Shown: piece by piece, positions 31,886 to 41,157 of the stretch
Numbering within the stretch: the stretch's first letter is position 1
Layout: every line of letters begins with the position of its first letter
Source of the DNA: an uncultured Planctomycetaceae bacterium
GTDB taxonomy: Bacteria; Planctomycetota; Planctomycetia; Isosphaerales; Isosphaeraceae
Length of the DNA: 64,000 bases
Assembly: GCA_963833985.1 (NCBI GenBank)
Contig: CAWIAD010000001.1
Coordinates: 1,056,001-1,120,000, forward strand
Direction of reading: 5' to 3'
Notes under the pieces: model-generated
Seen by the model: only the letters and a program-made list of their open reading frames with translations
The model's database searches: none
What the model was told of the DNA's origin: nothing
Program-made: the position numbers and the translations under genes

Positions 31886-33726
<1,841 letters not shown>

Positions 33727-36718: not shown

Positions 36719-37872
36719 TCAGAGAATTCCCGCCGTGATCTCGGCGAGTGCCTCCAGGAACCGGTTGATCTGCTGCGGCGTTGTGAATGGCCCGGGGCTG
36801 AGCCGCAGGGTCCCGTCGGGAAAGGTTCCCAGGGCGCGGTGGATGTACGGAGCGCAGTGCAGCCCAGGCCGGACGGCGATCTCGAAGCTGACGTCGAGGA
36901 TCGACCCCAGGTCCTGCGGTGTGAGCCCCTCAGGCGCGATCAGCGACAGGGCGCCGACGTGGGTGGCCGGGTCCCAGGAGCCGGCGATCCGCCACGCCCC
37001 GTTCGCCTCCACCCAGTCGACGACCTGCTGCAAAAGATTGACCTCGTGCTGTCTCAATGGGTCGGGCCCGCGCTCCAGAACCCATTCGATGCCGGCAGTC
37101 AGTCCCGCGAAGCCCAGGACGTTGGGAGTTCCTCCCTCCAGCAGGAAGGGGAGCTGGACCGGCTGCGTCTCGCTCGCGGAGTCGCCCCCCGTACCCCCCT
37201 CCCTCCAGGCTCGGAGCTCCCCGTCGGTCCTCGGCCCAGCGTAGAGGGCGCCGGTGCCAGTGGGTCCGTAGAGGGCCTTGTGGCCGGGGAACGCCAGCAG
37301 GTCGATGAAAGTGGTGCCAAGGTCGATGGGAACCACTCCGGCCGACTGCGCCGCATCCACCAGGAAGAACGCCCCCGCCGCGCGCACCAGGGGGGCAATC
37401 TGCTCAATCGGCTGCACGGTCCCCAGCACATTGGCGGCGTGGGTCATGACAACGAGCCTCGTGTTCGGCTCCATCCCTGCCTGGATCGCACTGGCAGTGA
37501 CGTAGCCGTGTTCGGAGGCGACCCGGGTCAGGCGGATGATCCCGTTCTTTTCCAGGCGCGCAGGGGCCGGCTGACCGAGTTGTGTTCCAGGTCGGTGGTC
37601 ACCACGTGGTCGCCAGGGCGGAGCAGCCCCTTGATGGCGAGGTTGAGCCCATCGGTGCAGTTGTATGTGAGAATCCAGCGCTCGGGTGCGGCGCCGCGGA
37701 AGAGCTGATTCAACCGATGCCTGGCCTCATCAAGGGCCCTCTCCGCGGCGATGGCCATGCGATGTCCCGCGCGCCCGGGGTTTGCCAGGCTGGTCCGCGC
37801 GAAGCGATCGAGCGCCTGGTACACCGGCTCGGGCTTGGGAAAACTGGTGGCGGCGTTGTCGAGATAGATCAT
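36719..37872 (-). CDS. Cysteine desulfurase family protein (frameshift ~37555)
   Basis: MIYLDNAATS, EHNSV, VDAAQ, PGHKALYGP, EGGTPN, RPGLHCAP. Confidence 0.9.
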
Positions 37873-37933
37873 GGTGCGTTCCGCAGGCTCGAGGTCGATG
37901 ATCGATTTCTCTAGGGTTGGTCCGGAGTCATCC

Positions 37934-38981
37934 TCAGTTCCCCACGAACTGCGCGTAGAGCGTGCGGGCCCTGGCGATGTCGTTGGTTCCCTTGATGATG
38001 GCACGGCCGTCGGGGAAGACGGTGAACTCGTAGCCTTCGGTGGCGAACCGCAGCATGAAGGCGTTGTGCCGCACCTCGCCCAGGGGAGCCATGCGGCGGG
38101 CCAGCTCGGAAAAGTCCAGCGGTTCCGGACGGCGCGCGGCCACCTGGACCGCGTTGCGGCCGCAAAGGGTGGTGGTGTGCGAGCCCAGGCCGCCCTCGAG
38201 CCACTCGAAGCGGCGATGCTGGCAGCAGGGGCAGTCCACCTTCCCCAGCAGGCCGGCAATCTTGAGCTGGCGGAAGGTCCAGTCCCACAGGTCCACCATG
38301 ATCAGGTCGCGGTTGAGTGCCTCGTGCTTGCCGCCGAGCAGCTTGATCGCCTCGACTGCTTCCAGCGAGGCGATGACCGCGACGGCCGGTCCCAGCACGC
38401 CGGCCGTTTCGCAGGTGGGGGTCATCCCGGGCGGCGGAGCGGACTCGATCACGCAGCGCAAGCAGGGCGTCTTGCCCGGCACGATGGTCATCGTCTGCCC
38501 CTCGCTGCCGATCACCCCGCCGAACACCCAGGGCTTGCCCAGCTTCACCGCGGCGTCGTTGATCAGGTAGCGGGTCTCGAAATTATCGGTTCCGTCCAGT
38601 ATCACGTCCGCGTCGGCCACCAGGTCAAGGATGTTCGTGTGGTCGATATCAGTGACCACCGGATCGATCGTGATGGTGCTGTTGATTTGCCGCAGCTTGC
38701 GCGCGGCCGCCTCCGCCTTGGGCAAGGAGTCGCGCACATCCTGCTCGTCGAAGAGGACCTGGCGCTGGAGGTTGTGCGTCTCGATGAAATCGCGGTCGAT
38801 GATCCGCAGGAAACCCACGCCGGCCCGCGCCAGGTGGTTGGCCAGCACGGTGCCCAGAGCACCACAGCCGCAGAGCGTGACCCTGCTACCCAGGAGGGCG
38901 GCGCTGGCCAGCCTCTCCCAGGGCGGGGAAGCGAACCTGGCGGGAGTAGCGGTCGAGCGGGTCGTGGTTCGGTTCAGGCAC
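37934..38981 (-). CDS. moeB: ThiF/MoeB adenylyltransferase without rhodanese domain (frameshift ~38895)
   Basis: DRYSRQ, GCGALG, DRD..E..NLQRQ, DGTDNF, CLRC, CPCC, CGRNAVQ. Confidence 0.88.
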
Positions 38982-39255
38982 CCGGCGCTCCTCCCGCGAC
39001 CGCGGGGATGATGCTGATCTCGTCGCTCTCGACCACCGGGGTGGCCAGCTCGTCGAGAAACCGGATGTCCTCGTTGTTGAGATAAACATTGACGAACCCG
39101 CGCAGCTCCGGACCGTCGAAGAGCCGGTCGTGGAGCCCGGGGAACGCGGTCCCCAGGTTCAGGAGGATCTCGCCCACCGTCGCGCCGGCGGTTTGCAGTC
39201 GATCCTGACCGCCGGCATGGGGACGGAGCGGGCCGGGGATGCGTACCGTTGCCAT
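38974..39255 (-). CDS. MoaD/ThiS/CysO-like ubiquitin-fold sulfur carrier with C-terminal GG-APGA
   Basis: VRIPGPLR, FVNVYLNNEDIR, SIIPAVAGG. Confidence 0.92.
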   Translation of the reverse strand: MATVRIPGPLRPHAGGQDRLQTAGATVGEILLNLGTAFPGLHDRLFDGPELRGFVNVYLNNEDIRFLDELATPVVESDEISIIPAVAGGAPGA

Positions 39256-39339
39256 GATGCGTGGTTCTCCTTCAGGGGCTTTCTGGCCCTTCTACAGTGA
39301 TTCGGTCCATGTTATCCCGTGAGCGGCTCGTGGCATACC

Positions 39340-40632
39340 TCACGCCTCGCTGGCCGCCAGGGCCCCAGCTTCGCTGGCGGCGGGCGAGTCGCCGCGAGAG
39401 TCGAGAAGCTCGTCAAACGCTTCCAGGGTGGGCTCGATCAGGGCCGGCGGGGCGAGCCTGCCCTGCACGGCCTCTTGCGTCTTCAGGCCGTTGCCGGTGA
39501 TGCACAGCACCGTGCTGCCGTCGCGGTCGATCCGGCCCTGCTCGATGAGTTTTTGTGCCACGGCAAGAGTGACGCCGCCGGCGGTCTCGGCCCAGATGCC
39601 CTCGGTCTCCGCCAGCAGGGACATGGCGGCCACGATGGCGTCGTCGCCGACGTCCTCGCTCCAGCCGCCCGTCTCGCGGATCAGCCGCGAGGCGAAATAG
39701 CCGTCAGCCGGGTCGCCGATCGCCAGGCTCTTGGCAATGGTGCGGGGCTGGCGCACGGGCTTGACCCGGGGAGCGGCCGTCTTCACCGCGGCCGAGATCG
39801 GGTTGCAGCCGGCCGCCTGTGCGCCGAACATCCGTGTCCGCACCGAAGATTCCAGCAGGCCAAGCTGCTCGAGCTCGCGGAAGCCTTTGTAGATCTTGCC
39901 GATCAGACTGCCGCCGGCCATGGGGGCCACAACCTGATCCGGCGCGCGCCAGCCCAGGTCCTCGGCGATCTCGAAGCCCATCGACTTCGATCCCTCGGCA
40001 TAATAGGCGCGGAGGTTCACGTTGACGAAGCCCCAGCCGTGGCGGAAGGCAATCTGCGAGCAAAGCCTATTGACGTGGTCATAATTGCCGCGGACGGCAA
40101 TGACCCGGGCGCCGTAGATGCTTGCGCCCAGGACCTTGCCCTGCTCGAGCCCTTCGGGAATGAGCACGTAGGCGTCGAGTCCGGCCGCGGCCGCGTTGGC
40201 CGCCACGCTGCCGGCAAGGTTGCCGGTGGAAGCGCAGCCGACGATCTGGAACCCAAATTCCACCGCCTTCGAGAGGGCCACGGCCACGACGCGGTCCTTG
40301 AACGAGAGCGTGGGATGGTTGACCGCGTCGTTTTTGAGGTACAGCTCGCGCACGCCCAGCGCACGGGCCAGGCGGTGGGCCCGCACCAGCGGCGTGCCGC
40401 CCACGTGCACCCCCACCGCCGGGTCACCGTCGATGGGTAATAGCTCGCGATAGCGCCACATCGTCCGCGGACGCCTGGCGATCGCCTCCCGCGTCAGCGT
40501 CTGCCCCATCACCTCATAATCGTATGCCACTTCCAGGGGCCCGAAATCCTCGGTGCAGAAGTTCAGGGCCTCCCCGGGATAGTGCTTCCCACAGAGACGA
40601 CATTTCAGCCCCGTCACGCGTTGTGCTGACAC
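39340..40632 (-). CDS. Threonine-synthase-like PLP enzyme (candidate O-phosphohomoserine sulfur-incorporating enzyme)
   Basis: NHPTLSFKDR, ASTGNL, NVNLRAYYAEGSK, SLAIGDPADG, ITGNGLK; lies between a SAM riboswitch and a sulfur carrier. Confidence 0.85.
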   Translation of the reverse strand: MSAQRVTGLKCRLCGKHYPGEALNFCTEDFGPLEVAYDYEVMGQTLTREAIARRPRTMWRYRELLPIDGDPAVGVHVGGTPLVRAHRLARALGVRELYLKNDAVNHPTLSFKDRVVAVALSKAVEFGFQIVGCASTGNLAGSVAANAAAAGLDAYVLIPEGLEQGKVLGASIYGARVIAVRGNYDHVNRLCSQIAFRHGWGFVNVNLRAYYAEGSKSMGFEIAEDLGWRAPDQVVAPMAGGSLIGKIYKGFRELEQLGLLESSVRTRMFGAQAAGCNPISAAVKTAAPRVKPVRQPRTIAKSLAIGDPADGYFASRLIRETGGWSEDVGDDAIVAAMSLLAETEGIWAETAGGVTLAVAQKLIEQGRIDRDGSTVLCITGNGLKTQEAVQGRLAPPALIEPTLEAFDELLDSRGDSPAASEAGALAASEA

Positions 40633-40793
40633 CAGCCTGGCTCCTCTCTTCAGAACATGCGCTGCGATCGTGCGGCTCGTGAGCCGGACAGCAAAACCAG
40701 AGAGTCACGCAGCTTTCCAGAGGAGCGGGCGGCGGGCGGGAAACGCGACAAGGACGTTCGATGTGGGTGCGAGACAGCACTTCACGATCGACC

Positions 40794-40951
40794 ATCTTAT
40801 CTGTCCCACGGTGTGTTCGGCCGATTGGCTCGTCACGGATGACGGACCGGCAAACTCACACTGGGCAGGAATTAGCACCAGCATCCACCGGGACGGCGGA
40901 CCGGTTGCTGTGGCGTCACAGGGCCTTTCCCTCAGCCACTCTGGATAAGAT
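40794..40951 (-). ncRNA. SAM-I (S-box) riboswitch with extended P4
   Basis: Minus strand AUCUUAUCCAGAG-UGGCUGAGGGAAAGGCCCUGUGACGCCA-CAGCAACC...GGUGCUAAUUCC...GAUAAGAU; P1 AUCUUAUC/GAUAAGAU. Confidence 0.92.
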
Positions 40952-41157
40952 GCGCACCAAATTATGAGTTTCCGAGTGTAGGGGTGTCGGGACGTATCCG
41001 TCAAGACCATGCCCGAGGCCGTCACTGTCCATGTTGCTGGTTTCCTGCGTGCCGCGGGTCCTGGCGCCTGGACACCCCGCATAGAATCCCGATGTCCTGG
41101 CTGCGTCGGTCGGGCAGAGCAGGCCGAAATCGGTTTGTACAAGGTGAGTCATCCGCG

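Follow-up and report, generated by a model that had tools for sequence, protein, structure and literature searches.

A SAM-I-led planctomycete operon annotated with a threonine synthase is predicted to encode a MetM/MetO-type route to homocysteine

Why would a gene annotated as threonine synthase lie behind a riboswitch that responds to S-adenosylmethionine (SAM), followed by a sulfur carrier, an E1-like activating enzyme, and a cysteine desulfurase? The question is raised by a stretch of 64,000 nucleotides (here, the window) from an uncultured Isosphaeraceae planctomycete (assembly GCA_963833985.1, contig CAWIAD010000001.1, positions 1,056,001 to 1,120,000), whose source genome is 96% complete. 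The minus strand of the window holds, all in one orientation, a SAM-I riboswitch, a ThrC-like pyridoxal 5'-phosphate (PLP) enzyme, a carrier, MoeB, and a desulfurase; these five elements had been listed in a first-pass annotation, and each of them is present according to the RF00162 match and the profile matches. We consider it likely, from sequence comparisons, that this operon is SAM repressed and encodes the MetM/MetO homocysteine route already known from Streptomyces albulus, with MoeB and a desulfurase of the TIGR01977 type standing in for MoeZ. It is the combination of the SAM-I riboswitch, the orthology to MetM, and the absence of MetX, MetY, and MetA in the 15 genomes outside the genus that have the gene that makes this route the most likely one.

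The MetM-type enzyme, its carrier, and the SAM-I leader

The first gene (39340 to 40632; minus strand, as for all features of the window given here) encodes a PALP-domain protein of 430 amino acids which is annotated as threonine synthase and which we assign to the MetM type by profile matches, motifs, and trees. Its closest named homologs are from Isosphaeraceae (78 to 83% identity). For the actinobacterial comparison, reached via a Nonomuraea match, the best 80 of 583 confirmed loci were used: the window enzyme is 51 to 55% identical to all 80 proteins, whose genes are each followed by a carrier gene, while the other two ThrC paralogs of the source genome reach just 26 to 31%. SAM-I was found upstream of all eight actinobacterial metM-type genes tested. 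The window enzyme and the actinobacterial proteins have in common the signature STGNL / VNVNLRxYYxEGSK / P(M,I)A(G,S)GS(L,Q) / LAIG(D,N)PADG instead of the canonical ThrC motifs STGNT / NSVNPxRxEGQKT / PVGNAGN, which are absent from the window enzyme. When aligned with 1uim, it shows Leu for Thr88, Arg for Asn157, Tyr for Arg160, and Ser for Gln164, four positions which we take to have a phosphate-binding role in 1uim. Quick maximum-likelihood trees placed it in one clade with the actinobacterial MetM-type proteins (SH-like approximate likelihood ratio test [SH-aLRT] support, 98 to 100), and the approximately unbiased (AU) test rejected its placement with canonical ThrC (p-AU, 1.75e-9). The actinobacterial loci were treated as MetM orthologs because their layout matches that of S. 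albulus metM/metO as given in the accessible text of PMC12172450.

In the databases, these proteins are named "threonine synthase" and "molybdopterin converting factor small subunit," which is the misannotation that the first-pass annotation had expected. Its proposal that the supposed ThrC is a homocysteine synthase using a thiocarboxylated carrier agrees with the clade, the motifs, and, as detailed below, the riboswitch linkage and the absence of MetX, MetY, and MetA. A MetM/MetO function is thus predicted with considerable confidence for the window enzyme and its carrier.

The gene of this putative MetO-type carrier (38974 to 39255; ThiS-family match) starts 84 nucleotides 3' of metM, and its end overlaps the start of moeB. 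The carrier is 38 to 45% identical to the actinobacterial ones, and its C terminus reads AGG-APGA, since the stop codon and a spacer of about 70 to 110 nucleotides are missing between two GGAG repeats. Among 119 close carrier homologs, the C terminus is AGG in 110 and is extended by a tail in 9; of the 80 actinobacterial carriers, 20 likewise have a short extension behind GG. Other carrier arrangements were observed in two families. Loci L066, L067, L069, L078, and L079 of family f28 consist of SAM-I, metM, and carrier without moeB or desulfurase, and the tails that follow GG in their carriers vary (N, NS, NYNI, SDCV, HQKFFVIRY). In family f44 (L070:3615-4166, L071:4333-4911, and L072:3517-4077), the carrier has a NIL domain fused to its C terminus, and its gene is followed by moeB and, in two of the three loci, by the desulfurase gene too.

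The RF00162 match (40853 to 40951) reached 58.4 bits (cut-off, 44.4; E value, 6e-11), and the full aptamer, which has a long variable P4, extends to about 40793 (40793 to 40951), since folding and alignment place the true 3' strand of P1 behind this P4. The P1 strands obtained by folding, AUCUUAUC (40951 to 40944) and GAUAAGAU (40801 to 40794), are both near-invariant across 12 aligned leaders, and P1 to P4 are intact. Ten nucleotides 5' of the aptamer lies a sigma70-like promoter candidate, CCGACA-18-CATAAT (40961 to 40990), one of two overlapping candidates, proposed by consensus match only. With 150 of 893 candidates scored, this was the sole SAM-I match found genome-wide; the metY-metX, cysK-mec, and thrC-dapB loci and the thrC locus of Streptomyces gave none. 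The leader with the expression platform (40633 to 40792) contains a conserved CUURUC-like element, a potential competitor for the 3' strand of P1, and a Shine-Dalgarno sequence (GAGGAG, 40646 to 40641), which was paired in all three folding tests, with no switching of its pairing seen in the folds. This leader holds no intrinsic terminator, so SAM control is probably translational or via Rho. If control acts on translation of the first gene, a shared MoeB would be spared.

Distribution of the operon and the remaining pathway genes

The arrangement of the operon is conserved far beyond chance. A metM-type gene was detected in 26 of 40 relatives, and SAM-I lies upstream of it in 25 of the 26 class-level loci, the sole miss being at a contig end. 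All 25 longer class loci have the carrier and moeB, and 22 have the desulfurase (two of the misses are contig ends). A metM-type gene is also carried by 19 of 130 genomes from other classes, and the 15 loci fetched from them showed SAM-I in 10, the carrier in 10, moeB in 4, and the desulfurase in 3, the moeB-desulfurase link being kept in 3 of the 15. Loci L073, L075, L076, and L085 hold MetM-clade genes without detected SAM-I or adjacent carrier; the function of these genes may differ.

None of MetX, MetY, and MetA was found in the 15 gene-positive genomes outside the planctomycete's own genus (g1), nine of which are at least 90% complete, while MetX and MetY occur together in five of nine gene-negative genomes from other families. 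At the phylum level, MetX was found in 0 of 19 gene-positive versus 35 of 111 gene-negative genomes, counts that are correlated by kinship, the 19 positives representing a handful of families, and that are to be read as supportive and not as a statistic. The own genus is the exception, with metX in 12 and metY in 10 of its 13 members, 11 of which retain the operon. Four further genomes (G026, G029, G031, and G036; 94 to 99% complete) yielded no MetM-like gene, MetX, MetY, or MetA at the thresholds used, which leaves a gap in methionine synthesis.

The first-pass annotation regarded the operon as a self-contained route, a claim that has to be given up: HomK and a Mec-like peptidase are encoded elsewhere, the genes for MoeB and the desulfurase occur throughout the class and in nine of nine MetM-less relatives from other families, and the source genome additionally has metY-metX. 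The HomK gene (C1:528348) scored 483 with TIGR02535 (cut-off, 446), and in the accessible bioRxiv version of PMC13759103, GapMind describes a TIGR02535 HomK as shown to form O-phosphohomoserine in Bacteroides. ThrB of either type was not found in the source genome; a TIGR00191 match was rejected as ThrB, the gene being IspE. The Mec-like JAMM gene (Prok-JAB; C2:3991255), with the motif E...HSH...SRTD, is frameshifted in the assembly and lies 3' of a cysteine synthase gene identified as cysK (TIGR01139 over cut-off). Outside family f1, Mec was found in seven of seven cases with MetM versus two of nine without it, a co-occurrence that we set aside as weak, since this peptidase could also be required by ThiS-ThiG fusions.

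Separate genes for MoaD-moaE and ThiS-thiG are also present in the source genome. Its ThiS frame continues into ThiG after VGGG (C2:5059473-5059976), an arrangement seen in 27 of 30 loci from Isosphaeraceae and two other families, a count biased to fusions, since the query was itself fused and the 30 loci were its top matches. Such a fusion would need proteolytic release, plausibly by the Mec-like JAMM. MoaD, encoded beside moaE (L059:2927-3172), ends GG-GGA, and all three main carriers of this genome are C-terminally masked. Together, the ThiS-ThiG fusion and the MoaD end make it likely that a trimming peptidase is needed regardless.

The gene at 1171 to 2439, outside the operon, which the first-pass annotation took for a separate threonine synthase, is a second ThrC-family paralog of the PRK08197 type and scores as "threonine synthase" with that model, but it lacks the canonical ThrC motifs, and we rejected it as the housekeeping enzyme; that role likely belongs to a ThrC with canonical motifs adjoining dapB (C1:2119334). 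The paralog has the altered motifs PTQGNAG and QEPGWRTEGKKT and a long branch. The check for other met genes that had been suggested showed a canonical, intact metY-metX pair and a MetB/MGL-family gene below all cut-offs in the source genome.

Sulfur supply and competing explanations

The moeB gene (37934 to 38981; profile match and alignment to relatives) encodes a MoeB/ThiF E1-like adenylyltransferase without a rhodanese domain, as had been noted at first pass; the intact ortholog lacks this domain as well. ThiF-family matches in the source genome number three, namely, the operon MoeB, a HesA-like protein encoded among nif genes, and a JAB-linked E1, and as the only general E1 among them, the operon MoeB probably also serves ThiS and MoaD. 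The E1-like and JAB-domain genes stand side by side (C2:389330-390897; L049), like a bacterial ubiquitination-like module, and the nif region (C1:3131000-3137000; L061) holds a nifS-like gene, nifV fused or frameshifted to nifW, nifZ, and the gene for the HesA-like E1. The last gene of the operon (36719 to 37872) encodes a class-V protein of the TIGR01977-type cysteine desulfurase/selenocysteine lyase family, with a PLP lysine in GHK and a catalytic cysteine in RPGLHC; all 19 aligned proteins keep both residues unchanged. Split by a frameshift, it matches TIGR01977 with 111 plus 242 bits (cut-off, 377), while intact orthologs exceed the cut-off in 27 of 41 genomes or come near it. Its match to the SclA model was below cut-off. 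A single-sequence AlphaFold model was discarded (predicted local distance difference test score [pLDDT], 40).

In the pathway that we propose, HomK would form O-phosphohomoserine, the Mec-like JAMM beside cysK would trim the APGA tail and expose GG, and MoeB would adenylate the carrier. The co-encoded desulfurase would make a persulfide from cysteine, the sulfur of which would pass to the adenylate either without an intermediary or via a trans-acting rhodanese, and this is the least certain step. MetM would then eliminate phosphate on PLP and add the thiocarboxylate sulfur at C-gamma, homocysteine would be released from the carrier, probably by Mec, and SAM bound to the leader would lower expression. 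MoeB and the desulfurase would probably serve ThiS and MoaD too, and metY-metX would be a second route in the own genus. For direct transfer from the desulfurase to the carrier adenylate, which the conserved gene order suggests, we see about an even chance.

Besides the kinship among the genomes counted, several points weigh against this pathway. The predicted MetM orthology rests on riboswitch-plus-carrier synteny, the reference being Streptomyces riboswitch-linked orthologs and not the S. albulus sequence; S. albulus MetM (A0A059WBP2) did not appear among the 15 members listed for a cluster of 1810. The window enzyme passes TIGR00260 thrC (281; cut-off, 167), and a Microcystis homolog 51.6% identical to MetM is described in the accessible text of PMC12172450 as a threonine synthase and deaminase that yields threonine as well as alpha-ketobutyrate in vitro but did not raise methionine in cells. 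In 12 of the 15 loci of other classes, the desulfurase is non-adjacent. TIGR01977, which includes EF2568, is presented in the accessible text of PMC2276186 as a probable selenocysteine lyase family in a selenium metabolism context, and the source genome has a selenocysteine tRNA (tRNA-Sec; aragorn, C2 c[3521345,3521443]). Because metY-metX is present, the operon is not needed in the source genome. The frameshifts in two of its genes and the loss of the carrier stop may also be genuine.

The alternative that survives best accepts MetM and MetO as working but regards MoeB and the desulfurase as housekeeping genes that are merely co-located, with sulfur arriving via a stand-alone rhodanese or another desulfurase, and with TIGR01977 acting perhaps mainly on selenocysteine. 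We hold this for a serious possibility, if not the favored one. Apart from the selenium context and the tRNA-Sec, it draws on the TIGR01977 matches in 23 of 23 high-quality genomes, on MoeB orthologs (52 to 60% identity) and TIGR01977 proteins in nine of nine metM-negative genomes from other families, on the nine rhodanese-domain matches and other class-V enzymes in the source genome, and on the MetM loci of family f28, most of which are without moeB and desulfurase. However, 22 of 25 class loci and two distant families keep the order metM-carrier-moeB-desulfurase, which is broken up where metM is missing: moeB and the desulfurase lie apart in at least seven of the nine metM-negative genomes, contig ends blurring two. 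Being clustered with MetM and scattered without it, the two genes would be functionally linked to it, though not dedicated. Class-wide presence would also fit sulfur chemistry better than a selenium-only role, and E. coli IscS is reported, in the accessible text of PMC8300815, to bind MoeB and MoaD.

The MetM/MetO pathway with a co-encoded sulfur supply may be extended to a shared planctomycete hub, in which the uncharacterized TIGR01977 desulfurase would pass sulfur directly to a rhodanese-less MoeB and on to MetO, MoaD, and ThiS, and one Mec-like peptidase would unmask all three, including ThiS-ThiG. We put this forward tentatively. If true, TIGR01977 would gain a function on the sulfur side, and the sulfur supply for thiamine and molybdopterin would come to lie behind a SAM riboswitch. 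Literature searches on ThiS-ThiG and JAMM returned only unrelated papers.

Decay of the operon in the source genome, metY-metX having taken over, is an improbable alternative, which takes the sequence defects at face value. Relative to orthologs, moeB has one base too many near 38895 to 38900 (+1), the desulfurase gene has one too few near 37555 (-1), and the deletion that removed the carrier stop departs from the AGG end of 110 of 119 homologs; these frameshifts and the AGG-APGA end, like the missing ThrC motifs at 1171 to 2439, had been overlooked at first pass. The frequency of metX in the genus (12/13) would also suit decay. However, frame changes affect 9 of 55 orthologs tested in the source assembly with 126 query genes of a near-complete relative (G004); glmS (window positions 31886 to 33726) is split across two frames, the Mec-like gene and thiG are frame-broken, and at least three other class-V genes of the source genome are split between frames, so that the frameshifts in moeB and the desulfurase gene are probably assembly errors. 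One DNA sequencing run (5% of words) gave short contigs, mostly less than 90% identical, which left the desulfurase frameshift site uncovered. The ratios of nonsynonymous to synonymous substitution rates (dN/dS) versus relatives, 0.09 to 0.30, are akin to those of intact relative pairs (0.13 to 0.24) and compatible with very recent decay at most. MoeB as the only general E1 and the operon kept in 11 of 13 genus members also argue against decay.

The reading of automated annotation, in which the first gene encodes a plain or bifunctional threonine synthase and the other three genes belong to molybdopterin or thiamine synthesis, agrees with the TIGR00260 score, the database names, and the Microcystis activity but is very improbable given SAM-I in 25 of 26 loci, the replaced ThrC motifs, the rejected ThrC clade, the canonical ThrC beside dapB, the separate MoaD-moaE and ThiS-thiG genes, and the complementary distribution of metM and MetX/MetY.

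If the MetM/MetO reading is right, a widespread misannotation would be corrected, and in many planctomycetes without MetX, MetY, and MetA, the operon would be the only homocysteine route found in our searches. It would also represent a compact four-protein system for carrier thiocarboxylation without a fused rhodanese and give TIGR01977 a testable function. The surprise is limited, since the central chemistry is already published and included in GapMind 2026.

Comparison with known systems

The MetM/MetO route in Streptomyces albulus was reportedly described by Hasebe et al. in 2024 (AEM 90:e01247-24). As summarized in the accessible text of PMC13759103 and PMC12172450, this thiocarboxylate route uses MetM, MetO, MoeZ, and Mec and starts from O-phosphohomoserine. 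The planctomycete locus resembles it in having a SAM riboswitch at the 5' side, a ThrC-like PLP enzyme followed by a ThiS/MoaD-type carrier, and a Mec-like JAMM elsewhere. It differs in its E1, which is a rhodanese-less MoeB/ThiF protein and not MoeZ, an E1 with a rhodanese; in its phosphohomoserine, which probably comes from HomK and not from ThrB; and in the additional metY-metX of the source genome. In the 80 actinobacterial loci, neither moeB nor a TIGR01977 desulfurase was found within 3 kb. Literature searches returned no paper on the planctomycete layout, most subscription papers lying outside the search; the tables of Hasebe 2024 may include planctomycete homologs.

The thiocarboxylate of a ubiquitin-like carrier as sulfur donor, activation by an E1, and trimming or release by a JAMM protein are common to CysO/CysM/Mec/MoeZ, used for cysteine in Mycobacterium, and HcyS/HcyF/HcyD of Wolinella; the acceptors are O-phosphoserine for CysM and O-acetylhomoserine for Wolinella MetY. 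The planctomycete route would differ from both in its PLP enzyme and in its acceptor. In contrast to the selenium context described for TIGR01977 proteins (EF2568/SclA) in the accessible text of PMC2276186, the window gene belongs to a carrier operon that is predicted to be SAM controlled. With canonical ThrC (Thermus thermophilus 1uim/1v7c, Aquifex aeolicus 2zsj, Mycobacterium tuberculosis 2d1f), the window enzyme shares the fold-type II PLP architecture, the SFKDR lysine, STGN, and the presumed substrate, but it has an N-terminal CxxC...C extension and belongs to a separate clade.

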